Part shown: positions 3,585 through 28,322 of the stretch, in pieces
Numbering within the stretch: the stretch's first letter is position 1
Layout of the letters: every line of letters starts with the position of its first letter
Origin: an uncultured Chloroflexia bacterium
Lineage (GTDB): Bacteria > Chloroflexota > Limnocylindria > QHBO01
DNA: 64,000 bases
Direction: 5' to 3'
Assembly (NCBI GenBank): GCA_963695195.1
Contig: CAVOGE010000007.1
Span: 767,756-831,755, forward strand
Notes under the pieces: generated by a model
Seen by the model: only the letters and a program-made list of their open reading frames with translations
The model's database searches: none
What the model was told of the DNA's origin: nothing
Translations under genes and position numbers: made by a program

Positions 3585-3949
3585 GGGGATGTCAGGTTTC
3601 GACAGGGCTCAGGGACCGGGAACTGCAGGTCGAGGTCGCCCGCAGGTCCTCGTTAAACCGCGGGCAAGCCAGTAACTGGCACTAACAGTTACGCTCTCGC
3701 CGCCTAACTAGCGTCGAGCGTCAACACGGCCCTCTCTCGCCGGGCCGTGAAGGCGTCAAAAGGCGGGATGCGGCGTCGCCGACTCCGGTGAGCGACGTCA
3801 AAGGGGCCGCAAGGCCTGCCGGATAGCACGCGGAGCACCCCGCCGGTCGGGGGCCCGCAAGCGAAGCGCAAATTGGCCGGAAATACCTGTAGTACGTTCC
3901 CGGCGACTCGGTTCTGGACGGGGAGTTCGATTCTCCCCCATCTCCACCA
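3585..3949 (+). ncRNA. ssrA: tmRNA (ssrA), one-piece. Predicted tag reading frame ends ...GKPVTGTNSYALAA-stop (3663..3707).
   Basis: 5' end GGGGAUGUCAGGUUUCGACAGGG matches the tmRNA consensus. 3' end GGACGGGGAGUUCGAUUCUCCCCCAUCUCCACCA has a T-arm and CCA. The acceptor stem pairs 5' GGGGAUG with 3' CAUCUCC and includes the G3.U wobble needed for alanylation. An internal ORF ends YALAA-TAA. Located directly after smpB. Confidence 0.9.
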
Positions 3950-8839: not shown

Positions 8840-10180
8840 ATGGATGCGAAGCAGGTGTGGCGTGCCGTCCTCGGTGAGCTGCAGGTCAGCCTCTCGCCGG
8901 CCAATTTCGAGACCTGGCTGAAGGACACGTCCCTCGTCGACCTCGACGAGAACCGCTATCGCATCGCAGCGCCAAACGGCTTCGCGCGCGACTGGCTCGA
9001 CAACCGCTATCGGACCCTCGTCAGCCAGACCCTGGCGCGCGTGGTCGGCGGATCGGTCCAGGTCGAGTTCGTGGTCGCAGACGCGCCGGGTCCGGTCCCC
9101 GCGCAGGCCGACGATGACACGCTCCCCCTGCCCCCGGCATCCGCGGGCGGCAACACGGTCAACCTCAGCGGCCGCTACGCCTTCAGCAACTTCATCGTCG
9201 GGAGCGCCAATCGCCTGGCGCATGCCGCCGCCCTCTCAGTCGCCGAGCGGCCCGGGCACGCCTACAACCCGCTCTTCCTCTACGGCGGAGTAGGGCTGGG
9301 CAAGACCCACCTGATGCACGCAATCGGCAACGCGGTCGCGGCGAAGTTCCCACGCAAGCGGATCCTGTACGCGACCAGCGAGAAGTTCACCAACGACTTC
9401 ATCAACTCCATCCGCGAGCAGAAGATGGAGGACTTCCGGAACCGGTACCGCCGCATCGACGTGCTGCTGATCGACGACATCCAGTTCATCGCCGATCGCG
9501 AACGGACCCAGGAGGAGTTCTTCCACACCTTCAACACGATCCACGAGGCCGGCAAGCAGATCGTGCTCTCCAGTGACCGGCCACCCAAGGCGATCACCAC
9601 CCTGGAGGAGCGGCTTCGCTCCCGGTTCGAGTGGGGCCTGATCGCCGACCTGACGCCGCCGGACCTGGAGACCCGCATCGCCATCCTGCGGAGCAAGGCC
9701 GAGGACCAGGTGAACCTGATCCCGGGCGAGGTGATCGAGTTCATCGCCCGCAAGGTGGTGAGCAACGTCCGTGAGCTCGAAGGTGCGCTCAACCGGGTCG
9801 TCGCGTACGCCAGCATGTCCGGCATGCCGATCAACAACGAGCTGGCGAGCGCGGTGCTCAGCAACGTCATGTACAACCCCAAGAAGCGCTCGATCACTCC
9901 GCAACGGATCGTGCGCGCGGTTGCCGACTACTACGGCGTGAACCTGGACCAGCTGCGCTCCAGCAAGCGTGATCGCGCGATCGTGGTCCCGCGACAGATC
10001 GCCATGTACCTGATCCGCGAGGAGACCGACATCTCGCTGCTGCGGATCGGCGCCGAGCTGGGCGGTCGAGACCATTCCACGGTGCTGCACGCCTACGACA
10101 AGATTGCCCGAGAGTTGCTCGACAACGACGAGATGCGCCGCGAGGTGAGCGCGGTGCGCGAGATGATCTACTCCGATTGA
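8840..10180 (+). CDS. dnaA: Chromosomal replication initiator DnaA
   Basis: Walker [14 protein letters not shown]+ sensor motifs, and the C-terminal DnaA-box binding helix VLHAYDKI. Confidence 0.95.
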
Positions 10181-15964: not shown

Positions 15965-16755
15965 GCCGTCTCCCGGCGCGTCCCCAGCACCTGCGTTCTC
16001 CGGGTCCACAGCGCCCAGCGCAGGGCCGCCAGGTCACGGAAGGTCCGCAGGATCTTGCCGATGCTGGCACCGGTGTTGGTGCCAGCCGCCCGCGGGTAGT
16101 GGTTGACGCCCACCTGGGCGGAACGCACGCCGCGGGCACGCAGCTTGATGAGCAACTCGGCCGACAGGAACGGCCCGTCGGCGTCCAGACGCAGGCCGTC
16201 GAAGACCTCGCGGCGGAAGAGCTTCATGGCGCAGTCGATGTCGCGCACGCGCAGGCCGAAGGCGACCGAGACGATGGCGTTGTAGGTCTTGGCGATGAAG
16301 ATCCGGTGGAACGGATCGCGCCGCTTGATGCGGTAGCCGATCACCGCGTCGACCGGCTTTCGGTCATCGGCCAATCGGTCGAGCAGGCGGCTCATCTCGC
16401 GCAGGTCGAACTGCAGATCACCGTCCGAGAAGCAGATCAGCTCGCCGCGCGCCTGCTCGAACCCCGCCTTCAGGGCGCCGCCGTAGCCTCGATTGACCTG
16501 GTGGTGGACGCGCACCCTCGGATCGGCGGCGGCCAGGGCATCGGCCATCGCCGGCGTGCTGTCGGTTGAGCCGTCATCGATGGCCAGGACCTCGATTGAG
16601 CTGACGAGGGGGCCGATCTCGGCCAGCGCCCGCTCGACGGTCCGCTCGATGTTCTCCTGCTCGTTGTAGGCGGGGAAGAAGAAGGTGAGCGCCGGCCGGG
16701 CGTCGTCGGACGGCGCCGAGGATGGAGCGGGGGACGGGTTCGGGTCGTGGGTCAC
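15961..16755 (-). CDS. GT2 family polyprenol-phosphate glycosyltransferase (Ppm1/DPM1-like)
   Basis: GTG start 4 nt after a perfect AAGGAGG. LAIDDGSTDST and the DxD region FSDGDLQFD are GT-A motifs. The upstream part of six-frame ORF 15961..18432 is not coding. Confidence 0.85.
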   Translation of the reverse strand: MTHDPNPSPAPSSAPSDDARPALTFFFPAYNEQENIERTVERALAEIGPLVSSIEVLAIDDGSTDSTPAMADALAAADPRVRVHHQVNRGYGGALKAGFEQARGELICFSDGDLQFDLREMSRLLDRLADDRKPVDAVIGYRIKRRDPFHRIFIAKTYNAIVSVAFGLRVRDIDCAMKLFRREVFDGLRLDADGPFLSAELLIKLRARGVRSAQVGVNHYPRAAGTNTGASIGKILRTFRDLAALRWALWTRRTQVLGTRRETA

Positions 16756-16887
16756 GCGACCTCCTTGCAGCGGGTCCGCCGTACCGTAGCGCAACCGCTC
16801 GGGGAGCGGGGCCGTCAAAGGGTCGATGTATACTCCGGCCCACCTTGGCCCACGACCGCAGGCGCCCCTGACCGGGTGCCCCCACCG

Positions 16888-19800
16888 ATGACCCGCGACT
16901 CCGTGAGGGAGCGGGGCGCGAGGCCATTCGACCGCGGCCTGCCGCTCGATCCCGCCACGTTGGTGATCCTCCTGATCGCACTGGGGGTGCTTCTTCGCGC
17001 CTTCATCGGCGGGGTCTTCGTGCCACTCTCCGGCTTCCGGATCGACGTCGGCGACTTCTCGGCCTGGGCCCAGCGGCTGGCCGCTGGCGGACCGGGCGAG
17101 TTCTACCAGGCCGACTACTTCAGTGACTACCCGCCCGGCTACATGTACGTGCTGTGGCTGCTCGGCTCGATCGGGGAGTGGCTGCGCCCGGTCTTCGGCC
17201 TGTCGATCACCCCTGGGCTGGTGAAGGTGCCCGGCATCCTGGCCGACGCGGGCGTCGCCTGGGTCCTGTTCATCTACGCCCGACGGTTCGGAGACCGATG
17301 GCTCGGCGGCTGGGGTGGCGAACGGATCGGCGTGGTCGCGGCGACGATCTACCTCTTCAACCCCGGCACCATCTTCAACGCATCGGTCTGGGGCCAGGTC
17401 GACTCGGTGGGGACGCTCGCCATCCTCGCAACGCTCTACCTTCTCGCTCGCGGCTGGACCGAGGCTGCCGCGGTGGGCGCCGTCGTGGCGCTGCTGGTGA
17501 AGTTCCAGTTCGCCTTCCTGATCCCGATCGTCGCCATCGTCGGCATCAAGCGACACCTCTTCGGCGGCTCGTCGGACCCGGAGCAGGACGGCCGCGGCGA
17601 CCCGCTTCGCGTGCTCACCTCGCTCGCGGCGGGTCTCGGAACGCTGGTCGTGCTGATCCTGCCGTTCGGGCTGGCTGTCTGGGCTCCAGCGGATCGCGCT
17701 CACTCGCTGATCGGGAAGTTCCTTGACGCGGCCGACACGTACAAGGGCCTCTCGATCAACGGGTTCAACCTGTGGCGTAACCCGTGGAGCGGACTGGGCG
17801 ACTCGTTGCAGTGGGGATGCGACGTCGCCCCGCCGACATGCCCCGACGGGCAAGGCATTGCTGTCGTGCTCGGCTCGTTTCCCGTCACCTGGCAGCTGGT
17901 GGGCACCGTCCTGTTCGCGCTCGCCGCCCTCATCGCGCTCTGGCAGATCGCGCGCCGCGACGACGCGACGGGCCTTCTCGTCGGTGCGCTGGTGCTGGCG
18001 GTGGCCTTCTACGCGCTCCCCACCCGCGTTCACGAGCGATACCTCTTCCCGGCGCTGGCGCTGGCTGCCCCGCTGGTGCTGCTGGGGCGGCGATGGATGG
18101 TCCTGTACGCGGCCCTGACCGTCGCGTTCTTTGCCAACGTCTACTGGGTCTACACGGCTGACTGGTCGTGGGCGGGAGGCAGCGTCATGAACCCGGGGCT
18201 GAACGGGGCTCCCATGCCACGCGACCCGCTGCTGGCCCAGTTCCTGTTCAACGATACCGGGATCTATCTGCTGTCGGCCGGGATCGTCGTCGTCCTCGTC
18301 TGGCTGCTCGTGCAGTCGGCGGGGATGGCGGTTCGCGCGAGCGATCTGGTCCTGGCCCCCATGCGTTCGAGCCCGCCGCCTGCCCCGGCCAGCCCGTTGC
18401 CCGAGCCGCAACTGCCGCAGCCTGCCACGCATGCGCCGATCCCTCGCAACCGACCACCCTTCCGTTCACAGGTGCGCCACCTGCTCCGCCGTGACCCGAC
18501 CGACCCGTACGCTTCGGAGCCGTCGCGGCGACTCGACCGACGTGATGCCCTGCTGCTCCTTGGACTCGTGCTCTTCGCCCTCGTCTTCCGCCTGTGGCGG
18601 CTTGACTTCCCGCGCCACTTCCACTTCGACGAGGTGTACCACGCGCGCACCGCGACCGAGATGCTCTCCGACTGGCAGGAGGGCTGGACCCGAGACACGT
18701 ACGAGTGGACGCACCCGCAACTGGCGAAGTACCTGATCGCGGCCGGGATCGCGGCGGTCGACCCCAACAAGGTGCTCGGCAGGACCGAGCTGGACGCGCC
18801 GGCCACGTCGCTGGCGGTCGCGCCCCAGCGCAGCGCCGAGGGGCGCCCCGCGTCGATCGTCTTCGCGTCCGCCGGAGACGAGACGATCACGGCCCGAGAG
18901 GTCACGTCGGGGACGGTGGTGTCGAGCTGGACGCTGAGCAGCCCGGTTGCCAGTCTCGCGTACGACGAAGACGCCAACCGGTTGCTCGTCGGGTTGGCCG
19001 ACACCGGGACCGTATCGGTGTTTGATCTGACCGCATTCCTGGGCCAGCTTGGTGAGCGGGGGCCGCCGCCGGGCGTGGCGCAGATCGAGACCGGGTTGGC
19101 CGGTATCCCCGAGATCGTCATGCCGCAGGGCCAGCCGATCATCCTCTTCCGCGGCAGCGACGGGATCGCCGAGGTGGAGCGCGAGACGGGCGCCCAGATC
19201 GCGTTCTCCAGCCTGGTCGCGAGTGGCATCGGCTACGTGCCGGCCGGCTCCGGCGAGGACGGCGCGCCGGCGCGCGTCGTCGCCATCGACCTGTCGAGCG
19301 GAAGCCTGGTGGCGCTCGACGCCGGCTCGCTCCAGCTTGATACCGGGGTGATCGGCAGCGACGGACGACTGTTCCTGCGCGCCCCTCCGACGGGACCGAT
19401 CATGGTCCAGGCGCGGGGCAAGGACACGCAGGTCTGGGTTCCGATCGGACCACTCCCCGCTGACGACGAGCACGGCCCCGTTGCCGGGGGCCTGACCGTT
19501 TTCGACGAGAAGCTGTCCGAGATCGACACGGTCCCGCTACCCGGCACCCCGCGACTGATCGGCTGGCAGTTCGTGGCCAACATCGTCTACGTCGCGGGGA
19601 CCGATCCGGCCACCGGCGAGGGCGAGGCATGGGCGGTGATGCCGCACGGCAACGGCGGCTCGCAGAGTGTTGGGTTCGCCGCATTCGACACGAGTCCGCT
19701 GCTGGGGGAGCCGCTGGCACTTGGGTTCGACATCTCCGACCACGCGGAGGGCGACGATCACGGTCGGCTGCTCGTCTCAACGAACGCATCGGCGGGCGCG

Positions 19801-21576
19801 CAGTTGGAGACGATCGATGCGGGCAGCAACGCGTTCGCCTGGCGCATCGCGGGGATCGTCTTCGGTTCGATCCTGGTCGGACTCATCTACCTGCTCACGG
19901 CGACCCTCTTCCGACGTCGACGGATCGCGGTCCTTGCAGCCGCCTTCGTGGCGATCGACGGGATGAGCTACGTCATGAGCCGGATTGCGATGAACGACAT
20001 CTTCGTGGCCACCTTCATCGTGGCCGCCTACCTGGTCTTCTGGCAGGTCTGGTCGGGGCGCTGGGTACGCAGCGCCTGGTGGGCCATGCCGCTGGTCGGC
20101 GTCCTGATCGGCCTGGCAGCCGCCAGCAAGTGGGTCGGCTGGTACGCGCTCTTCGGCCTGTGGGTCCTCGTCCTGGCGCGTTCCGGCCTCGGCCGCTTCC
20201 TGCTGGTCGCCGGTGTGGCATTCATCACCGTGGTGGGCGGCATCGGGGCCCCATGGCCGTTCCTGGTCGTCTGCCTGCTGGCACTCGGACTCGCGCTCGT
20301 CCTCGTCTGGGAGCGCCCGGTGCGCCTCACGGGCCGCGACCTGGCGGCGCTGCCGGCCATCGGCGTCGTGGCGGGCGGCATCGGCCTGGCCTTCACGATG
20401 GCCTACGGCACCGTGGAGGGGCGTGATCCGCGGAGCGCCGTGGAACTCCTCTTCGCGATCCTCGCGCGCGGCGCGCAGGCGGCGTGGCCAACCTGGCTGA
20501 TGCTGGGCGTCGCGGCCGTGCTCCTCCTGCTCCGCGCCTGGCGGTCACTGCGCGACCCCGCCAGCGACCGGCGCTGGTACCTCCCCGGCGAGCTCGGCGG
20601 CTTCGCCTGGCCGTGGGTTGGGGCGAGCCTGCTGGTCATCCCGCTGCTGGTCTACTTCGTGAGCTACGTCCCGTACCTGCAGCTCGGCCACGGCATCGCC
20701 ACGGTCGGGCAGGGGCCTGGCTACGGCTGGTCGCTCGATGAGCTGCACTCGCAGATGTTCGGCTACCACTTCGGTCTGCAGGCAGGCCACGCCGCTTCGT
20801 CGCCATGGTGGAGCTGGCCGCTCGACCTGAAGCCGGTCTGGTTCTACAGCCACTCCTTCGATGACCGGCAGATGGCGGTCATCTACAACGGCGGCAACCC
20901 GATCCTCTTCTGGGCGGGCGTCCCGGCCGTGCTCTGGGCCGCCGTCATGGCCTGGCGTCGTCGATCGCTTGCCCTCGCCGTGGTCGCCGCAGCATTCGCT
21001 TTCCAGTACCTGCCCTGGATCCGGATCGAGCGCGCCACCTTCCAGTACCACTACCTGACCGCCGTCCTCTTCTCGATGGTCGCCGTGGCCTACTTCGTCG
21101 ACGAGGGTCTTCGCTCGTGGGGATATCGGTCCCTGGCGATCGCCTTCCTGGTGGCCGTCGGGGTCGCGGGGGTGCTCGTCTTCCCACTCGGAGCCGCGCT
21201 GGTCATGCCGGACTGGTACATCAACGCAGCCCGCGCCCTGGCCCCATGGAACTACGCGTTCCAGTTCCCGTCGCCGCCGCAGGGAGAGCGTGCGCAGCTG
21301 ATCACGGCCGACAGCCTGAAGCTCGCGATCGGCACGGTCGTCTCGGTGGGCGCGGCCGCCTTCGCCCTGATGGGGCGGGACCTGCTCGGCTCCCGCGCCG
21401 CGCCGCCGCCGTCAGCCTCGACGACGGAAGGCGACCACCATGAGGAGCATGCCCACGACGACGAGCCCGAGTGGCCAGAGCCGATCGATGTCGATCTCCG
21501 GCAGGTACTCGCGGGCGAGGAAGTAGATCCCGAGCCCGATCAGGATCAGCCCGAAGACCCACGACCCGCCACCTGA
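16888..21576 (+). CDS. Giant (about 1563 aa) double-module GT-C glycosyltransferase: N-terminal polytopic GT-C module, then a PMT/ArnT-like module with a large extracytoplasmic insert
   Basis: Module 1 (about aa 1-500) is multi-TM with GT-C-like loops. A Pro-rich linker follows. Module 2 carries RLDFPRHFHFDEVYHARTA (the first-loop motif of the PMT family) and a PMT-type C-terminal 4-TM region (HSQMFGYHFGLQ...SPWWSWPLDLKPVWFY). A 350-400 aa beta-rich segment sits between TM1 and TM2 of module 2. A possible extended -10 promoter TGTATACT lies at 16822-16829. Confidence 0.8.
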   Translation: MTRDSVRERGARPFDRGLPLDPATLVILLIALGVLLRAFIGGVFVPLSGFRIDVGDFSAWAQRLAAGGPGEFYQADYFSDYPPGYMYVLWLLGSIGEWLRPVFGLSITPGLVKVPGILADAGVAWVLFIYARRFGDRWLGGWGGERIGVVAATIYLFNPGTIFNASVWGQVDSVGTLAILATLYLLARGWTEAAAVGAVVALLVKFQFAFLIPIVAIVGIKRHLFGGSSDPEQDGRGDPLRVLTSLAAGLGTLVVLILPFGLAVWAPADRAHSLIGKFLDAADTYKGLSINGFNLWRNPWSGLGDSLQWGCDVAPPTCPDGQGIAVVLGSFPVTWQLVGTVLFALAALIALWQIARRDDATGLLVGALVLAVAFYALPTRVHERYLFPALALAAPLVLLGRRWMVLYAALTVAFFANVYWVYTADWSWAGGSVMNPGLNGAPMPRDPLLAQFLFNDTGIYLLSAGIVVVLVWLLVQSAGMAVRASDLVLAPMRSSPPPAPASPLPEPQLPQPATHAPIPRNRPPFRSQVRHLLRRDPTDPYASEPSRRLDRRDALLLLGLVLFALVFRLWRLDFPRHFHFDEVYHARTATEMLSDWQEGWTRDTYEWTHPQLAKYLIAAGIAAVDPNKVLGRTELDAPATSLAVAPQRSAEGRPASIVFASAGDETITAREVTSGTVVSSWTLSSPVASLAYDEDANRLLVGLADTGTVSVFDLTAFLGQLGERGPPPGVAQIETGLAGIPEIVMPQGQPIILFRGSDGIAEVERETGAQIAFSSLVASGIGYVPAGSGEDGAPARVVAIDLSSGSLVALDAGSLQLDTGVIGSDGRLFLRAPPTGPIMVQARGKDTQVWVPIGPLPADDEHGPVAGGLTVFDEKLSEIDTVPLPGTPRLIGWQFVANIVYVAGTDPATGEGEAWAVMPHGNGGSQSVGFAAFDTSPLLGEPLALGFDISDHAEGDDHGRLLVSTNASAGAQLETIDAGSNAFAWRIAGIVFGSILVGLIYLLTATLFRRRRIAVLAAAFVAIDGMSYVMSRIAMNDIFVATFIVAAYLVFWQVWSGRWVRSAWWAMPLVGVLIGLAAASKWVGWYALFGLWVLVLARSGLGRFLLVAGVAFITVVGGIGAPWPFLVVCLLALGLALVLVWERPVRLTGRDLAALPAIGVVAGGIGLAFTMAYGTVEGRDPRSAVELLFAILARGAQAAWPTWLMLGVAAVLLLLRAWRSLRDPASDRRWYLPGELGGFAWPWVGASLLVIPLLVYFVSYVPYLQLGHGIATVGQGPGYGWSLDELHSQMFGYHFGLQAGHAASSPWWSWPLDLKPVWFYSHSFDDRQMAVIYNGGNPILFWAGVPAVLWAAVMAWRRRSLALAVVAAAFAFQYLPWIRIERATFQYHYLTAVLFSMVAVAYFVDEGLRSWGYRSLAIAFLVAVGVAGVLVFPLGAALVMPDWYINAARALAPWNYAFQFPSPPQGERAQLITADSLKLAIGTVVSVGAAAFALMGRDLLGSRAAPPPSASTTEGDHHEEHAHDDEPEWPEPIDVDLRQVLAGEEVDPEPDQDQPEDPRPAT

Positions 21577-21879
21577 GTGTCGGCGTGCCGGACGCCCGGA
21601 CTGCGCAGCTCGGCCGGCTGGCGCCACCCAGCCCGATGACGGCGCGGCGCCTCCCGGGTCCGGGTCGGCGGCGTCCGACGACCCCGCGCCTTCCGGAGCC
21701 TGTGGCACCACGATCCACATCACGATGTAGACGATGATGAAGATGCCCCCGGTGATGAGCCCCAGCACGGCCCACACCACGCGCACGATCGACGGGTCGA
21801 GGTCCAGGTACTCGGCGACGCCGCCCGCGACGCCGCTGATCATCTCCTCGCGACGCGACCGATAGAGCCGGCGATTCAT
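21412..21879 (-). CDS. PspC-domain membrane protein
   Basis: AGGAGG sits 7 nt upstream of ATG. N-terminal PspC domain RLYRSRREEMISGVAGGVAEYLDLDPSIVRVVWAVL, then TM segments. Its start overlaps the upstream gene stop (ATGA). Confidence 0.75.
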   Translation of the reverse strand: MNRRLYRSRREEMISGVAGGVAEYLDLDPSIVRVVWAVLGLITGGIFIIVYIVMWIVVPQAPEGAGSSDAADPDPGGAAPSSGWVAPAGRAAQSGRPARRHSGGGSWVFGLILIGLGIYFLAREYLPEIDIDRLWPLGLVVVGMLLMVVAFRRRG

Positions 21880-22838
21880 TCGCAGCCTCCTTCAGGGTTC
21901 AAGGTAAAGCTCCCGGCGTTGCCGCTGATCTCGAGTTGGATCTGCTGGGCCGCCCCCGCGTAGCCCGAGGTAGACCAGGTGTCGCCGACACGCGTCAGTC
22001 CGGAGTCATCCAGGTTGTGCGAGAAGGTGATGTTCGAGTCGACGGTGAACTCGACGGCCACCCCGTCGAGCGTGCAGACCTCAATCGACCCGGCATTGAC
22101 GCTCAGGCTGCCCCGGCTCTCCATCGCCGTCCCGATCGTGACCGATGCCGAACCGGCATTCAACGACAGGTCGAGGCGGTCGACATCTGCATCGGTCAGG
22201 TCGAGCGTCAACGAGCCGGCATTCGGACTCAGCGAGATGCTCGTGAAGTGACCCCCGCCGAGGTCGATGGTCGTGTCGGCCGCGTTGGGTGACGCGCTCA
22301 GCGCGTACACCGAATCGATCGGCAGGCTGACCTCCCAGCGCTGACGCCCGCCATCCCACCAGCGCCCGCTGTCCGGCGAGCGGACCTCGAGGCGATCGCC
22401 GCTCGCGGTGATCCGGGCCGGATCCCCGCCCCGCTGGCCGCTGGCGACCGTCCACGCCGATTCATCGGTCATGGCGACGCTCAAGGTGCCGCAGTTGAAG
22501 TCGAGCGCCACCCCGGCGCTGCCCCCGAAGTCGCCGCTGCGGGTGGAGAGGCTTGTCGGGTCGCCTCCGCCGCAGGCGAGCGACATCGTCGGTCCGACGG
22601 CGATCAACGCCCCACCGGCGGTGCCGACCACCAGGGCTGCCGCAACCGTCCCGATGACCGCGAACGGCGTGCTCGACACGACCACCGACACACCGATCAC
22701 GATCAGGATGACCGGCCAGAGGCGCCAGAGGTCGCGGAGGGCATCCTTGTCGAGATACCCCTGCTGGGCGGCCAGGGCGACTGCGCCGGCGGTGATGAGC
22801 GCCAGGCCCCAGAAGAGGAGCCCACGGTTGAGCGTCAT
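21876..22838 (-). CDS. DUF4097 (toast-rack, LiaF/YvlB-like) membrane protein paired with pspC
   Basis: N-terminal TMs, then a repetitive beta-rich domain (ISLSPNAGSLTLDLTDADVDRLDLSLNAGSASVTIG...SLSVNAGSIEV) typical of DUF4097. Start at Met66 of the six-frame ORF. Confidence 0.65.
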   Translation of the reverse strand: MTLNRGLLFWGLALITAGAVALAAQQGYLDKDALRDLWRLWPVILIVIGVSVVVSSTPFAVIGTVAAALVVGTAGGALIAVGPTMSLACGGGDPTSLSTRSGDFGGSAGVALDFNCGTLSVAMTDESAWTVASGQRGGDPARITASGDRLEVRSPDSGRWWDGGRQRWEVSLPIDSVYALSASPNAADTTIDLGGGHFTSISLSPNAGSLTLDLTDADVDRLDLSLNAGSASVTIGTAMESRGSLSVNAGSIEVCTLDGVAVEFTVDSNITFSHNLDDSGLTRVGDTWSTSGYAGAAQQIQLEISGNAGSFTLNPEGGCE

Positions 22839-22953
22839 GGCAGATTGGTCCTCAGAGTTGGTTCCACGCGAACGCGGAGACGGTACCACCGCGGCCTGGC
22901 CGCGAGTGGAGTGCCGATTGGCCCGTTGCCTGCCGGCCATCTGAACCTTTGGC

Positions 22954-22983
22954 TTGACAGGCCGCCGGGGACCGCCGTAGACT
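22954..22983 (+). promoter_or_regulatory. Sigma70-like promoter for the ABC exporter leader
   Basis: TTGACA (22954-22959), an 18-nt spacer, then TAGACT (22978-22983). Confidence 0.5.
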
Positions 22984-23065
22984 CCCGCGGCGGCCACTCC
23001 GGACAGTCGTGTCCTGCGTGCCCGTCCGGCCACTCAACCACCCCCGCGAGGACCGATGTAAGGCA

Positions 23066-23158
23066 ATGGATCTTCACCGGAGCACCCCCAACGCGTGCCC
23101 CACGGTGACGCCTATCAACGGCGACGCCGACGGGAGATCTGCGCCCGCCTCGAGCTGA
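23066..23158 (+). CDS. Candidate 30-aa leader peptide ORF (MDLHRSTPNACPTVTPINGDADGRSAPASS)
   Basis: GAGGA sits about 11 nt upstream. An ATG-TAA start-stop pair lies at 23056-23061. The ORF stops 38 nt before the terminator stem. Confidence 0.3.
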   Translation: MDLHRSTPNACPTVTPINGDADGRSAPASS

Positions 23159-23195
23159 CGAGACGGCGGCAAGGCCGCCAAACGAACGCCACGAG

Positions 23196-23226
23196 CCGTG
23201 GGCCAGATCGGGTCCACGGTTTTTTG
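23196..23226 (+). terminator. Intrinsic terminator inside the 5' leader of the ABC exporter operon (attenuator)
   Basis: 9-bp stem CCGUGGGCC / GGUCCACGG with one G.U, a 6-nt loop, then UUUUUUG. An alternative GCCACG-AGC-CGUGG(G)C hairpin overlaps the 5' arm. Confidence 0.6.
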
Positions 23227-23301
23227 TTGCTCGACCGACGAGCACAGGAGCCGCGGACCGACTGGGACCCGCGGCTCTCTTCTTTCCCGACAAGGCAACC
23301 G

Positions 23302-24252
23302 ATGGACGAGCGAGTGATGCCCGACCAAGACGAGGAACCCGAGATGACCAGCGTGCTGGAACAACCAAAGACCGATACGGCCACGGCCGCGCCCGTCGCA
23401 TCGCCGGCGCCGTCGCGGACCCGTCGCACGCTGCCGGAGGACGGCGTGCCGGCCCTGCTCGTCGAGCACGTCACCAAGCAGTTTCTGGTCGGCCGCAAGC
23501 GCAAGCCGGTGACCGCCGTGAAGGACATCTCGCTGCGCATCCGGCGGGGCGAGATCTACGGCGTGCTTGGAGCGAACGGCAGCGGCAAGTCCACCTTCAT
23601 TCGGCTGGTCAGCACCTTGCTGACCCTCGATACCGGCAAGGTGGAGGTGTTCGGCCACGACATCGAGCGCGACGAGATGGCGGTCAAGCGACTCATCAAC
23701 CGGGTGAGCGTGGACGCCGCCTTCTTCAAGAAGCTGAGCCCGTTCGAGAACCTGGCCTACGCAGCGCGCCTGTACGGCATGGACCCGAAGTCCGCGCGGC
23801 AGGAGGCGATCGCCATCCTGGCGCGGCTGGGGATCAGCGAGAAGCGGCTCGGCCGTCCGCTGGAGCAGATGAGCCGGGGGATGCAGCAGAAGGTCGCCAT
23901 CGCGCGGGCGCTGCTGACCAGCCCGACCCTGCTGTTGCTCGACGAGCCGACCACCGGTCTCGACCCGCGGTCGAAGCTGGACGTGCAGAGCTTCATCGAG
24001 GAGCTGCGCGATGGGCATGACGCCACAATCGTGCTCACCACGCACGACCTGGCGGAGGCCGACCGGCTCTGCGACCGGATCGCGATCATCAACGACGGGC
24101 GGATCGTGGTCGAGGACACACCCGAGGCGCTCAAGGTGCTCGTGGCAGAGCGCCACGGACAGGAGCCGACCATGGAGAGCGTCTTCATGACCTTCACGGG
24201 GCGCTCCCTTGACGACGATATCGACAACCAGGACGAAGAGAACGAAGACTGA
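23302..24252 (+). CDS. ABC-2 type exporter ATP-binding subunit
   Basis: Walker A GANGSGKST, signature MSRGMQQKVAIARAL, Walker B LLLDEPTTGLD, and an acidic C-terminal tail. Confidence 0.85.
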   Translation: MDERVMPDQDEEPEMTSVLEQPKTDTATAAPVASPAPSRTRRTLPEDGVPALLVEHVTKQFLVGRKRKPVTAVKDISLRIRRGEIYGVLGANGSGKSTFIRLVSTLLTLDTGKVEVFGHDIERDEMAVKRLINRVSVDAAFFKKLSPFENLAYAARLYGMDPKSARQEAIAILARLGISEKRLGRPLEQMSRGMQQKVAIARALLTSPTLLLLDEPTTGLDPRSKLDVQSFIEELRDGHDATIVLTTHDLAEADRLCDRIAIINDGRIVVEDTPEALKVLVAERHGQEPTMESVFMTFTGRSLDDDIDNQDEENED

Positions 24253-24268
24253 ATGAGAGGAGGTGATG

Positions 24269-24466
24269 AAGATGCTGTACCTGCATGACCAGGTAGCGAT
24301 CCGGTCGGTGCATGCCGATCGGGCACGGCACCTGCGCGGCGAGTTGCATGCAGCTCGTCGGCTGTCGCGCCGCCCCGTGCGGCGCTGGGTCGGTCGCCAA
24401 CTCGTGCGCGTCGGAGCGCACCTGGCGGCGGACCCCTCGCTGCGGCGTTCGGCTCGGTCACGGTGA
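24269..24466 (+). CDS. Small Arg-rich ORF (about 65 aa) between the ABC ATPase and permease
   Basis: AGGAGG sits 8 nt upstream of ATG 24269. Highly basic composition and no homology features. Confidence 0.25.
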   Translation, partial: KMLYLHDQVAIRSVHADRARHLRGELHAARRLSRRPVRRWVGRQLVRVGAHLAADPSLRRSARSR

Positions 24467-24504
24467 CCGGGCCGGCGCCGACCCTCATCGGTAGGAGTGG
24501 ACCA

Positions 24505-25305
24505 ATGGCACTTATGACCCGCGAACTGAAGGCGTCCTTCGCCTTCGTGGAGCGGAACTTCAACCTGACAAAGCGCTACTGGGGCTGGGAGGTCGCCTTC
24601 CTGGTCTATGCCGTGGCGGGCGCACTCGCGGTGTCGCTCATCGGTGCAGGGCAGAACGACACCCGGCTCCTGCTCACGCTGGTCATCGGTGCCGTCTTCT
24701 GGAACTACCTGTCGGTCGTCTTCAGCTTCATCGCCGAGACGGTCAGCTGGGAGCGCTGGGAGGGGACGCTGGAGTACACCTTCATGGCGCCGGTGCGGCG
24801 CTATGCCCAGATGCTCGGCTCAACGCTCTACGCGGTCATCTTTGGTTTCGTGCACACCGTGGTGGTGCTGGTCGTGCTCGCGCTCTTCTTCGAGCTCGAC
24901 CTGAGCCAGGCGAACTTCGGCACCGCCGCGGTCTTCATGGTTCTCGGCTCGGTCTCGTTCATCGGGATCGGGATCATGACCGCCATCCTGCCGCTCATGT
25001 ATGTCGAGCGCGGTGCGCAGATGACCTTCGTGCTGCAGTCGGTGCTGCTGCTGATCAGCGGCGTCTACTACAGCATCGACGTGCTGCCCGGCTGGATGCA
25101 GGTGGCTTCGAACTTCTCACCCGCGACCTATGTCCTCGACGGTGTTCGTGCCGGACTGATCGACGGGGTGGGCATCAGTGAGCTGCTCCGGGACGTGTGG
25201 CCGCTCGCCCTGATGGGGATCATCTTCATCCCCTTGGGCCTGTGGGCGTTCGGTCGCGCGGAGCGCTACGCCAAGCGGACCGGCAAGCTCAAGCGAGTAG
25301 GCTGA
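24505..25305 (+). CDS. ABC-2 type exporter permease
   Basis: Six predicted TM helices. AGGAG sits 8 nt upstream of ATG 24505 (Met15 of the six-frame ORF). Confidence 0.8.
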   Translation: MALMTRELKASFAFVERNFNLTKRYWGWEVAFLVYAVAGALAVSLIGAGQNDTRLLLTLVIGAVFWNYLSVVFSFIAETVSWERWEGTLEYTFMAPVRRYAQMLGSTLYAVIFGFVHTVVVLVVLALFFELDLSQANFGTAAVFMVLGSVSFIGIGIMTAILPLMYVERGAQMTFVLQSVLLLISGVYYSIDVLPGWMQVASNFSPATYVLDGVRAGLIDGVGISELLRDVWPLALMGIIFIPLGLWAFGRAERYAKRTGKLKRVG

Positions 25306-25309
25306 ACCG

Positions 25310-26302
25310 ATGCGCACGCCACCGCCTGGCTTCGTCCTGCGCCCCTATGCCGACCTCCCGGATGTGCCGGAGATGCTCCGCGTCTTCACCGCCTCCAACG
25401 AGGCAGACGAGATCGACGAGCGGATGTCGGCCGCCGGGCTCACCACCTGGCTGAGCCATCCGAGCGAGCACTTCGATCCTGCCAACGACCTGGTGCTGGC
25501 CGAAGTGGATGGCGAGGTGGTGGGCTACGGCTGGGCCTTCTGGGTCGACACCACCGACGGCCTGCGCGAGTACCTCACGCGCGGCCACGTGCATCCCGCG
25601 TGGAGGAGACGAGGTGTCGGCAGCGCCATCATGGCGCGCAATGAGGCGCACCTGCGCGGCCTGGCCGCCAGGCACGAATCAGACCGTGAGCGGGTGATGG
25701 GAACATTCGCCGACGAGCGACGGCCCGGCGCAGTGGCGCTGGTGCTGGCGAACGGCTACCAGCCGGTCCGCTACTTCTTCGAGATGCTGCGGCCGACCCT
25801 TACCGATATCGACGTCCCGCCGATGCCGGATGGACTCGAGCTGCGGCCGGTTGGGGACCGCGACGGCTATCGGCGGATCTTCGACGCCGATGCCGAGGCC
25901 TTCATGGACCACTGGGGCGGCTTCGATGCCAGCGACGCGAGCTTCGAGGAATGGCTGGACCAGCCCGACTTCGACCCGTCGCTCTTCGTCGTGGCCTTCG
26001 ACGGTGACGAGATCGCGGGCGTCGTGATCAACGAGATCGACGCGCACGAGAACGAGGCGTTGCAGCGCAAGCGCGGGCTGCTGGCCAGCGTCTTCGTGCG
26101 GCGTCCATGGCGGCGCAGGGGCCTCGCCGCAGCGCTCGTCGCCCGCAGCCTGCTCCTCCTCCGGGAGCGCGGCATGACCAGCGCGTGGCTCGGCGTCGAT
26201 GGTGAGAATCCGACCGGGGCGCTGGGCGTCTACGAACGGGCCGGGTTCGCGGTCCATTCGCGCGGGATGCAGTACCGGAAGCCGATGGAGACAGACCGAT
26301 GA
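25310..26302 (+). CDS. Tandem double-GNAT N-acetyltransferase (MshD-like architecture), copy 1
   Basis: Two GNAT cores with RRRGVGSAIM and RRRGLAAALV acetyl-CoA binding motifs. About 330 aa. Confidence 0.75.
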   Translation: MRTPPPGFVLRPYADLPDVPEMLRVFTASNEADEIDERMSAAGLTTWLSHPSEHFDPANDLVLAEVDGEVVGYGWAFWVDTTDGLREYLTRGHVHPAWRRRGVGSAIMARNEAHLRGLAARHESDRERVMGTFADERRPGAVALVLANGYQPVRYFFEMLRPTLTDIDVPPMPDGLELRPVGDRDGYRRIFDADAEAFMDHWGGFDASDASFEEWLDQPDFDPSLFVVAFDGDEIAGVVINEIDAHENEALQRKRGLLASVFVRRPWRRRGLAAALVARSLLLLRERGMTSAWLGVDGENPTGALGVYERAGFAVHSRGMQYRKPMETDR

Positions 26303-27315
26303 GCCAAGCACCTGCAACCTCCGAGGCGCTGCGCCCGACGATCGACGGTCTCGTGGTGCGACCGTACCGGCCGGGCGACGGCCCTGCGGTCGCCGACCTG
26401 CTCAACGCCGATAACGAGGCCGACGGGCTTCCGTGGCGCGTGTCGGCCGAGGAGATCGAGAACTGGATGGCCCACCCGACCGCCGGGTTTACCGCCGAGC
26501 GTGATGCATCGGTCCTGGAGCTCGACGGTCGGATCGTGGGGCAGACCGAGGTGGAGTGGGTCGACACGACCGATGGCCTCCGCGAGTTCCGCCTTGGCTG
26601 CGCGCTGCACCCCGACGTTCGCCGGCGCGGGATCGGGCGCTGGCTGCTGCGCCTTGGCGAGGAACGCGCCGCCGAGCGCCTGGCGGAGCAGCCGACCGAG
26701 CGCCCCGTGGTGCTCGGCACCTGGTGTCCCGACCGGCGCGTCGGCAAGGTGGCGCTCATCGAGCAGGAGGGCTACCAACGTGCCCGCTACTTCTTCGACA
26801 TGGAGCGCCCCAGCCTCGACGGGATCGTCCTGCCGCCGATGCCGACCGGGATCGAGGTCCGCCCGATGCGTGAGGACCGGCTTCGGCAGCTGTGGGACGC
26901 AGATGTCGAGGCCTTCGCCGACCACTGGGGCGGCTTCGATGGTTCGGAAGCGCGGTTCAACCAGTGGCGGAACGATCCGAGATTCGATCTCGATCTGCTG
27001 GTCGTGGCCTGGGATGGTGACGAGATCGCGGGCGGTGTCGTCAACTCGATCAACGAGGCGGAGAATGCCGCCCTGGGGCGGCAGCGCGGCTGGCTCGATA
27101 GCGTCTTCGTGCGCAGACAGTGGCGCCGGCGGGGACTCGCCCGTGCCGTTGTCATGCGCTCCCTCGCACTCCTGCGCGAACGGGGAATGACGTGCGCCGG
27201 CCTCGGTGTCGACGCGGACAACGCCAACGAGGCGCTGCGCCTCTACACGGAGTGCGGATTCGTCACGGACCTGCGGTCAGCGGCGTATCGCAAGCCGATG
27301 GAGCTGGATCGATGA
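26299..27315 (+). CDS. Tandem double-GNAT N-acetyltransferase, copy 2
   Basis: Paralog of copy 1 with the same YFFEM/DHWGGFDGSE framework. The start overlaps the previous stop (ATGA). Confidence 0.75.
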   Translation: MSQAPATSEALRPTIDGLVVRPYRPGDGPAVADLLNADNEADGLPWRVSAEEIENWMAHPTAGFTAERDASVLELDGRIVGQTEVEWVDTTDGLREFRLGCALHPDVRRRGIGRWLLRLGEERAAERLAEQPTERPVVLGTWCPDRRVGKVALIEQEGYQRARYFFDMERPSLDGIVLPPMPTGIEVRPMREDRLRQLWDADVEAFADHWGGFDGSEARFNQWRNDPRFDLDLLVVAWDGDEIAGGVVNSINEAENAALGRQRGWLDSVFVRRQWRRRGLARAVVMRSLALLRERGMTCAGLGVDADNANEALRLYTECGFVTDLRSAAYRKPMELDR

Positions 27316-28322
27316 CGGTCGAGCTGCCGTACGCGCCGCCGATCCAGGGGCTGCGCTTCCGGCGCCTTGAGCGGCCCGCCGACGACGCCGCCTTGGCCGA
27401 TCTGGACAATGCGGGCTTCCGGGCCGACGGCATCGAATTCCGCCTCTCGGCGGCGCAGGTGGGCACCTGGCTCGATCACCCCTCTCGGATGGACCTGACC
27501 GAAGACCTGCTGCTCGCAGAAATCGATGGCACGCTCGTGGCGCATGCCGAGGCCGGCTGGGAGCTCGACAACGACGGGGGCCGCAATTACAACGTCTGGG
27601 GTCAGGTGCATCCGACCTGGCGCCGGCGTGGCCTCGGTAGGACGCTCCTTCGATGGAACGAGGAGCGCCAGCGCCAGGTAGGCGCGGGCCACCCCACAGG
27701 CGGCGAGCGCCGGCTACAGAGCTGGGCCGACGAAGGGGAGGTCGGCCGGCTCGCTCTGCTGGAGGCCAGCGGGTACCAGGTCGCCCGCTACGCGTTCGAA
27801 ATGACCCGGGCCACGCTGGAGGGTATCCCCGATTTCGCGCTGCCCAACGGAGTCGAGGTCCGCCCGGCGAGCGGGGCCGACATGCGCGCCATCTGGGAAC
27901 TCGAGGTCGAGGCCTTCAGCGACCATTGGGGCGCAATCGACGGCACTGAGGAGTCATTCGCACGGTTTGTCGCCGACCCGACCCACGACCGGTCGCTGTG
28001 GGTCATCGCGTGGCACCGCGACGAGATTGTTGGCCAAGTGCTCAACCGCATTAACGCAGAGGCCAATGCGGAGCTCGGAATGCTGCGCGGGCGGGTCAAC
28101 TCGGTCGGCGTGCGGAAGGCGTGGCGGCGGCAGGGGGTGGGACAGGCGCTGGTGCTGGCCAGCCTGAGGGTCTTGCGCCAAGCTGGCATGACCAGCGCGT
28201 CGCTCGGCGTCGATGCCGAGAACCCGCACGGCGCCCTGGGGATCTACGAGCGGGCCGGCTTCCAAGTCGTGCGCCGAGAACGGGTCTACCGCAAGGCGCT
28301 CGAGCAGTCGCAGCCGGGCTAG
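27312..28322 (+). CDS. Tandem double-GNAT N-acetyltransferase, copy 3
   Basis: Paralog with an ATGA overlap. RRRGLGRTLL and RRQGVGQALV motifs. Start at internal Met of six-frame ORF 27120..28322. Confidence 0.75.
   Translation: MTVELPYAPPIQGLRFRRLERPADDAALADLDNAGFRADGIEFRLSAAQVGTWLDHPSRMDLTEDLLLAEIDGTLVAHAEAGWELDNDGGRNYNVWGQVHPTWRRRGLGRTLLRWNEERQRQVGAGHPTGGERRLQSWADEGEVGRLALLEASGYQVARYAFEMTRATLEGIPDFALPNGVEVRPASGADMRAIWELEVEAFSDHWGAIDGTEESFARFVADPTHDRSLWVIAWHRDEIVGQVLNRINAEANAELGMLRGRVNSVGVRKAWRRQGVGQALVLASLRVLRQAGMTSASLGVDAENPHGALGIYERAGFQVVRRERVYRKALEQSQPG

Follow-up and report, generated by a model that had tools for sequence, protein, structure and literature searches.

Our comparative analysis indicates that the operon for a DrrAB-like exporter and tandem GNAT acetyltransferases in an uncultured Chloroflexota bacterium (class Limnocylindria) is preceded by a leader that probably acts as a ribosome-mediated (leader-peptide) transcription attenuator. 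Comparison of orthologous loci establishes that the promoter is conserved, that a short ORF is conserved as an ORF, that the terminator is conserved, that a covarying antiterminator overlaps the ORF, and that the leader is associated near-exclusively with this operon. An earlier note on this DNA had proposed ribosome-mediated attenuation, and the conservation of the ORF and the terminator together with the covarying antiterminator supports that proposal. With this leader, a widespread uncultured lineage of soil and sediment gains a cis-regulatory RNA that is well supported.

The window (the whole 64,000-nt stretch of DNA analyzed here) carries the leader in a 463-nt intergenic gap (22839-23301), with a LiaF-like membrane protein gene on one side (21876-22838, minus strand) and the divergent gene for a DrrA-like ABC ATPase on the other (23302-24252, plus strand, ATG at 23302). 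The putative regulated operon of exporter and acetyltransferases spans 23302-28322 on the plus strand, and its genes were assigned from Pfam and NCBIfam matches, all under the equivalog cut-offs. The ATPase is followed on the same strand by a small basic ORF (24263-24466; MKMLYLHDQVAIRSVHADRARHLRGELHAARRLSRRPVRRWVGRQLVRVGAHLAADPSLRRSARSR), a DrrB-like ABC-2 permease with a GTG start (24463-25305), and three MshD-like double-GNAT acetyltransferases (25310-26302, 26299-27315, and a third extending up to 28322). We collected 80 orthologous loci via the ATPase; the ATPase is present in 80/80, the permease in 79/80, and GNATs in 72-75/80, and the unit kept among orthologs is the ATPase, the permease, and one to three GNATs. 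When we searched PDB sequences with GNAT1 and with the ATPase, the results offered no hint as to the substrate.

Several features of the neighborhood deserve separate mention. The tandem GNAT genes (25310-28322, plus strand) are paralogous, with 1 to 3 copies per orthologous locus, and the third GNAT ORF has a listed start (27120) that overlaps the second gene by ~200 nt, its real start probably lying downstream. The small basic ORF has a strong AGGAGG upstream, and its stop overlaps the permease GTG. It has no Pfam or NCBIfam match; homologues are found in 47/80 orthologous loci, never in the permease frame, and it is missing in the closest relatives (L001, whose ATPase is 95% identical to that of the window, and L002), where the gap between ATPase and permease is 4 nt. 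We considered the LiaF-like neighbor as a partner and placed it outside the system, as it is in the upstream flank of only 51/80 genome loci; among the metagenome matches listed, it is adjacent and divergent in 11/52 contigs. The upstream flank of 50/80 orthologous loci also holds a 1609-aa PMT-family (protein O-mannosyltransferase-like) protein, encoded at 16747-21576 (plus strand) in the window. Finally, the window contains a tmRNA gene (3585-3949, plus strand; Rfam 133 bits), for which ARAGORN gives the tag peptide GTNSYALAA.

Intergenic DNA is kept 5′ of the ATPase in essentially all loci with sequence there, and some intergenic blocks are better conserved than the ATPase protein. In an alignment of 73 leaders (A1), two stretches hardly vary across orthologs: the terminator and a 15-mer (GGGAGAUCUGYGCCC, 23132-23146). 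Scanning metagenomes with a pattern made from the 15-mer and terminator blocks, we matched at least 120 contigs, and among the matches listed, a DrrA-like ATPase lies <500 nt downstream of the motif in 102/106 contigs with enough sequence. These blocks are a precise metagenome marker for the operon. In all, the leader is conserved in about 200 sequences of uncultured soil Chloroflexota (Limnocylindria). The presence of promoter, ORF, and terminator is far beyond chance because they are conserved in at least 73 orthologous leaders from genome bins and at least 120 metagenome contigs, where the orthologs all come from one class (Limnocylindria) and independent evolutionary events are fewer than sequences.

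The Rfam scan that had been suggested for the leader returned no matching family (Rfam 15). The sole gathering-level hit in the window is the tmRNA, and the best sub-threshold hit in the gap (Xoo2, 25.6 bits versus a threshold of 45) covers little beyond the terminator hairpin. In the literature, we found no description of the leader, nor of gene regulation of such a kind in Candidatus Limnocylindria. Seven orthologous loci (L017, L032, L045, L062, L068, L076, and L078) are in bins titled Zixiibacteriota, Steroidobacteraceae, Binatia, or Angelobacter, probably through mis-binning of these contigs. One of the metagenome contigs lacking the ATPase downstream of the motif, L091, has a degenerate leader (9090-9320) with promoter, core, and a weakened terminator, and its downstream genes are on the opposite strand; this copy is probably a relic of rearrangement.

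The transcript is predicted to start from a sigma-70-type promoter (22954-22983, plus strand), noticed in the earlier note as near-consensus, with a −35 element TTGACA (22954-22959), an 18-nt spacer, and a −10 element TAGACT (22978-22983). The promoter has 10/12 consensus matches, and a scan of 3.5 kb found 1 such site against 0.3 expected. It is kept in 71/71 loci with enough upstream sequence while its flanks vary: TTGACA is found in 69 of them, the 18-nt spacer in 70, and TAGACT in 60. The predicted transcription start is at ~22989-22991, about 7 nt past TAGACT. MFE folds place an imperfect stem-loop at the 5′ end of the RNA (GCGG..CAC..GGACA-GUCG-UGUCC..GUG..CCGU, 22990-23025, plus strand). 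By eye, its base shows a complementary difference between clades (GCGGC/GCCGC versus GCACC/GGUGC), and its tip is variable; these observations point weakly to a real structure. RNAalifold on the 5′ part of the leader recovered nothing.

Downstream of this stem-loop lies a Shine-Dalgarno-like purine block, GAGGA (23048-23052, plus strand), within a CGAGGA that is nearly invariant in leader alignments. Its role is uncertain because its 13-nt spacing to the leader ATG is long for a Shine-Dalgarno sequence; a second candidate, AAGG, lies at 23060-23063 (plus strand). We rejected a hairpin that would join codons 2-4 to the Shine-Dalgarno-like block, since it is just 68% paired and lacks informative covariation. 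An ATG-TAA start-stop pair in this region, to which the earlier note had drawn attention, is indeed present (23056-23061), and it occurs only in the window, L001, and L002, which makes it incidental.

The leader ORF itself is at 23066-23158 (plus strand; earlier coordinates were 1 nt off) and comprises 30 codons and a TGA stop (MDLHRSTPNACPTVTPINGDADGRSAPASS*). Conservation of this ORF in relatives had been named as a check on the proposal, and we found it to be pronounced. An ATG or GTG start is in the same alignment column in 69/73 leaders, and the distance from start to core is a multiple of 3 in 69/69, with length classes of 51, 60, 63, and 66 nt. The leader frame contains 0 stops in 1453 codons, versus 67 and 10 for the other two frames. 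In 64/73 leaders, the ORF terminates at one shared alignment column, with TGA in 44, TAG in 18, and TAA in 2. Metagenome leaders encode at least 78 distinct peptides of 27-33 aa among the matches listed.

What is conserved in this ORF appears to be its translation. The N-terminal two thirds of the leader peptide are hypervariable, and entropy along the alignment shows no codon periodicity, being flat by codon position. A divergent clade (L019, L036, L049, L065, and L070) uses the +1 frame for the invariant core, giving a core peptide GD[LVP][RC]PS* versus GRS[VA]PxS[SR]* in the majority, and retains a 31-32-codon ORF that ends just past the antiterminator strand. The nucleotide conservation of the core must therefore reflect an RNA constraint, since the core is read in two frames. 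The comparison supports the view that selection at the coding level acts on translation across the stretch and not on the peptide. Two reading frames over a single RNA core amount to a clean natural experiment, showing for such leaders that being translated is important and that the identity of the peptide is not. Neither the orthologous nor the listed metagenome leader peptides contain a conserved run of regulatory codons.

Two invariant codons of the core, AGA-UCU (23135-23140), have the lowest usage among the Arg (1.1%) and Ser (0.5%) codons of neighboring genes. This rarity may keep the ribosome waiting over the antiterminator strand, or it may be a by-product of AGAUCU pairing. A programmed brake at these codons holds in the majority frame only, and we do not rely on it.

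The ORF is followed by an intrinsic terminator (T; GAGCCGUGGGCC-AGAUCG-GGUCCACGGUUU, 23193-23225, plus strand) with the U-tract UUUUUU at 23220-23225. Its stem (23193-23222) has 12 pairs around a core of 9 (23196-23204 with 23211-23219), which is the 9-bp GC stem that had been recognized from the sequence. T has a predicted energy of −20.5 kcal/mol, and its 12 pairs are 97.6% paired over the 73 leaders (here and for the other helices, we specified the helix by hand and counted pairs over the alignment).

The last 8 codons of the ORF contain the 5′ strand of an antiterminator, GAUCUG-C-GCCC-GC-CUCG (23136-23152, plus strand; codons 24-29), whose 3′ strand, CGAG-CC-GUGGGC-CAGAUC (23192-23209, plus strand), is the terminator 5′ arm plus loop. 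The helix has three segments: GAUCUG (23136-23141) with CAGAUC (23204-23209), GCCC (23143-23146) with GGGC (23200-23203), and CUCG (23149-23152) with CGAG (23192-23195). Over the 73 leaders, its first 10 pairs are 98.6% paired and the CUCG/CGAG segment is 84% paired. The helix is almost invariant, and where it does vary the changes are compensatory, in at least 4 lineages (L003/L008, L036, L070, and L080; in the variant table, the rows for L014, L019, L021, L027, and L078 are mis-anchored). L003 and L008 have a C-G pair replaced by U-A, L036 has GACGUG with CACGAG (two pairs changed), L070 has GAUGUG with CACAGG, and L080 has GGACCG with CGGUCG (two pairs changed). In the clade of L019, L036, L065, and L070, the altered terminator 5′ arm (CCGGAGGGCC) is matched by both the terminator 3′ arm (GGCCCCCCGG) and the antiterminator strand (GCCCUUCG). 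Such three-way covariation is the signature expected of mutually exclusive helices that share a strand.

This long-range helix is the conserved competitor of the terminator, a role that the earlier note had given to a small hairpin overlapping the terminator 5′ arm. The small hairpin exists (CCACG-AGC-CGUGG, 23189-23201, −6.0 kcal/mol), and checking both elements in relatives, we found the terminator to be conserved and the 5′ half of the small hairpin to vary. Being weak as well as variable, it is at most a transient fold.

The antiterminator encloses a further hairpin, P1 (GGCGG-CAAGG-CCGCC, 23165-23179, plus strand), which is 97.8% paired with a predicted energy of −11.9 kcal/mol. P1 shows changes on both sides in 3/5 pairs, as in L059 (GACAG/CUGUC) and L048 (GGCGA/UCGCC). 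RNAalifold on the MAFFT alignment recovered only fragments of the structure (P1, the terminator core, and a local hairpin) and a spurious long-range triplet. The local hairpin, RCGG-GAGAU-CUGY (23130-23142, plus strand), lies in the invariant core. It is closed by an A-U pair in 46 sequences and by a G-C pair in 11, and L036 and L070 have the same fold, with one pair more in L036. With this modest support, the local hairpin is possibly the resting fold of the antiterminator strand. Pairing of codons 2-4 (GAUCUUC) with GGAGAUC, a candidate anti-antiterminator, is 77% paired with one side invariant and no covariation, and it is not in the MFE.

We weighed these data against three other readings of the leader. 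The core 15-mer is invariant even at synonymous positions, and a clear pairing role is missing both for the loop of the local hairpin (GAGAU) and for the G and A at 23134-23135. Many exporters are under riboswitch control, and these features would fit a riboswitch-like leader in which a ligand or RNA-binding protein chooses the fold and the ORF is incidental. The start, frame, stop-freeness, and stop position of the ORF, however, are kept through 3-nt indels and a frame change, and such conservation is unexpected of a non-coding RNA. Terminator, antiterminator, or hairpin pairings explain nearly all conserved bases, and the leader has neither an aptamer-like junction nor an Rfam match. We consider a riboswitch very unlikely.

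The promoter and efficient-looking terminator bound a discrete transcript (22990-23225) that, once terminated, would accumulate when the operon is not induced. They could thus delimit an independent gene whose product, a 30-aa micro-protein or a ~235-nt small RNA, acts in trans; the operon would then be transcribed separately or by leak-through. This is highly improbable in light of the comparison: the orthologs have no conserved promoter between terminator and ATPase, the element is almost always directly 5′ of the same ATPase, and a covarying antiterminator makes sense only for conditional read-through. The micro-protein version is further disfavored by a peptide that is hypervariable and read in two frames.

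Ribosomes can also be arrested by a nascent peptide together with a small molecule, as in the TnaC and Erm leaders. For the Limnocylindria leader, this would mean that a peptide of the form [TA]-P-x-G ... GRS[VA]P-x-S-[SR]-stop arrests the ribosome on a small molecule and so sets the RNA fold. Most leaders keep the C-terminal residues and one proline, whose codon is fully degenerate at its third base, and AGA and UCU are the rarest local codons for Arg and Ser (1.1% and 0.5%). Against this, the clade that shares the RNA core has a different C-terminus (..GD[LVP][RC]PS*), and the synonymous-site conservation points to RNA constraints. Arrest at the C-terminus would moreover cover the antiterminator strand and leave the exporter off, an odd logic, and we give a peptide sensor little credence. 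We rejected a RiPP precursor outright, as the peptide is hypervariable and no modification enzymes are encoded nearby.

For the attenuator that we favor, we infer from the conserved elements that the ORF is translated, where transcription starts, that it terminates in vivo, and which way the switch works. Transcription would begin ~7 nt past TAGACT, and a ribosome would translate the ~30-codon leader. A ribosome keeping pace with the polymerase would reach codon 20 or beyond, or the stop, and cover the antiterminator strand; the terminator would then fold and transcription would end at ~23225. If the ribosome were absent or delayed in the first ~18 codons, the antiterminator would form first and hold the terminator 5′ arm, and the polymerase would read through into the exporter operon.

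Folding predictions for the nascent RNA (up to the terminator loop) are consistent with this switch. In the window, the antiterminator is in the MFE without a ribosome or with the P-site at codons 1-18, and it is lost from codons 19-21 onward. Of 69 orthologs, 65-66 have it in their MFE when no ribosome is present or when the ribosome has reached codon 5, 10, or 15; a ribosome at the last codon lowers this number to 2. The contrast arises partly by construction, since a masked strand cannot pair. Equilibrium folds of the full leader make the scan uninformative, as the terminator wins at every ribosome position. Because equilibrium favors the terminator, the decision must be kinetic (co-transcriptional). 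To our knowledge, this is common to all such attenuators. As we found no convincing anti-antiterminator, the prediction for an untranslated leader is read-through, which would set it apart from the trp leader.

The most speculative part of our model is the natural inducer, for which we propose translation stress, e.g. ribosome-targeting antibiotics or starvation, on the basis of the switch logic and the operon content. Such a signal would fit an operon for export plus acetylation. The leader flags the DrrAB-like exporter and tandem GNAT operon as conditionally expressed, plausibly in a response to translation stress or antibiotics, and by that plausible role the operon is a candidate environmental resistance determinant. 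A further suggestion from the leader is that Limnocylindria regulate genes through close coupling of transcription and translation.

Downstream of T, the leader contains two more hairpins. The first, SH (GCUCG-ACCGA-CGAGC, 23229-23243, plus strand, −8.0 kcal/mol), lies between T and the second hairpin, H2. Orthologs have a hairpin of other sequence at the same place, and 44% of cells are paired in a region that MAFFT aligns poorly. H2 (GGAGCCGCGG..CCGCGGCUCU; hairpin 23247-23278) with its U-rich tail (CUUCUUUCCC) occupies 23247-23288 (plus strand). It is 89.5% paired, with 4 covarying pairs and a predicted energy of −22.0 kcal/mol, and its tail has 4.1 T per 10 nt versus a background of 1.5. 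H2 and its tail may be a second, weaker terminator. The hairpin is present in the main clade and missing in the L019/L036 clade, and its arms resemble those of T. In L080 (~3816-3930), the most divergent leader, we observed a single hairpin with a T-like 5′ arm, an H2-like 3′ arm, and an UUUCGUUCC tail; this fused hairpin suggests that T and H2 of the main clade arose by duplication.

The T 3′ arm and U-tract can pair with the H2 5′ arm in an alternative helix that has a systematic A.C mismatch and is 85.7% paired. For 67/73 leaders, the nascent-RNA MFE includes this helix; with the H2 3′ arm present, the alternative helix is in the MFE in 28 and H2 in 39. These pairings raise the idea, which we hold to be unlikely, that the ribosome-position decision is relayed via a five-strand chain to two successive terminators. 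In the OFF state of such a relay, T and H2 would both fold, and H2 with its U-rich tail would act as a fail-safe terminator. In the ON state, the antiterminator would take the T 5′ arm, and the freed T 3′ arm and U-tract would pair with the H2 5′ arm around SH, disarming H2 too. We know of no described domino attenuator of this kind, in which one sensor governs two coupled terminators.

In logic and layout, the putative attenuator matches known leaders and adds a hitherto undescribed case to the classical ribosome-position attenuators. In the trp and his leaders of E. coli amino-acid operons, a textbook case that PMC4191407 also discusses, the position of the ribosome on a short ORF selects terminator or antiterminator. 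Like these, the Limnocylindria leader has a short ORF that stops ahead of an intrinsic terminator and an antiterminator of which one strand also belongs to the terminator and the other is overlapped by the ORF end. Unlike these, it has a hypervariable peptide without a run of regulatory codons, shows no more than a candidate 1:2 (anti-antiterminator) helix, and precedes exporter and acetyltransferase genes rather than biosynthetic ones. It has neither an Rfam hit nor sequence similarity to the trp and his leaders.

The earlier note had likened the layout to that of BmrB, the B. subtilis bmrCD leader, a 53-aa ORF with terminator, antiterminator, and anti-antiterminator inside the coding region (PMC4191407). 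Induction of this leader by antibiotics has been shown, and slowed translation was proposed to permit antiterminator formation; vmlR is also mentioned there (PMC4191407). The two leaders would share ribosome-mediated attenuation ahead of an ABC exporter, and for BmrB, too, the role of the anti-antiterminator is unclear (PMC4191407). The likeness does not extend to the arrangement of the parts: the 30-codon Limnocylindria ORF leaves 35 nt between its stop and the terminator stem, and the downstream DrrAB-like ABC-2 pair contrasts with bmrCD, which is of another ABC type. Comparing the two by layout, we see no homology and, in our judgement, no indication of common descent; what they appear to have in common is logic.

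Antibiotic-responsive uORF attenuators of resistance genes also include the vmlR, Listeria lmo0919, and mycobacterial whiB7 leaders. These belong to other phyla and lie upstream of different genes, and we set them apart from the Limnocylindria leader by description; for the latter, operon content alone suggests the link to antibiotics. Like them, the Limnocylindria leader places a short uORF and a terminator/antiterminator pair before resistance-type genes, and like them, it would sense stalled ribosomes.
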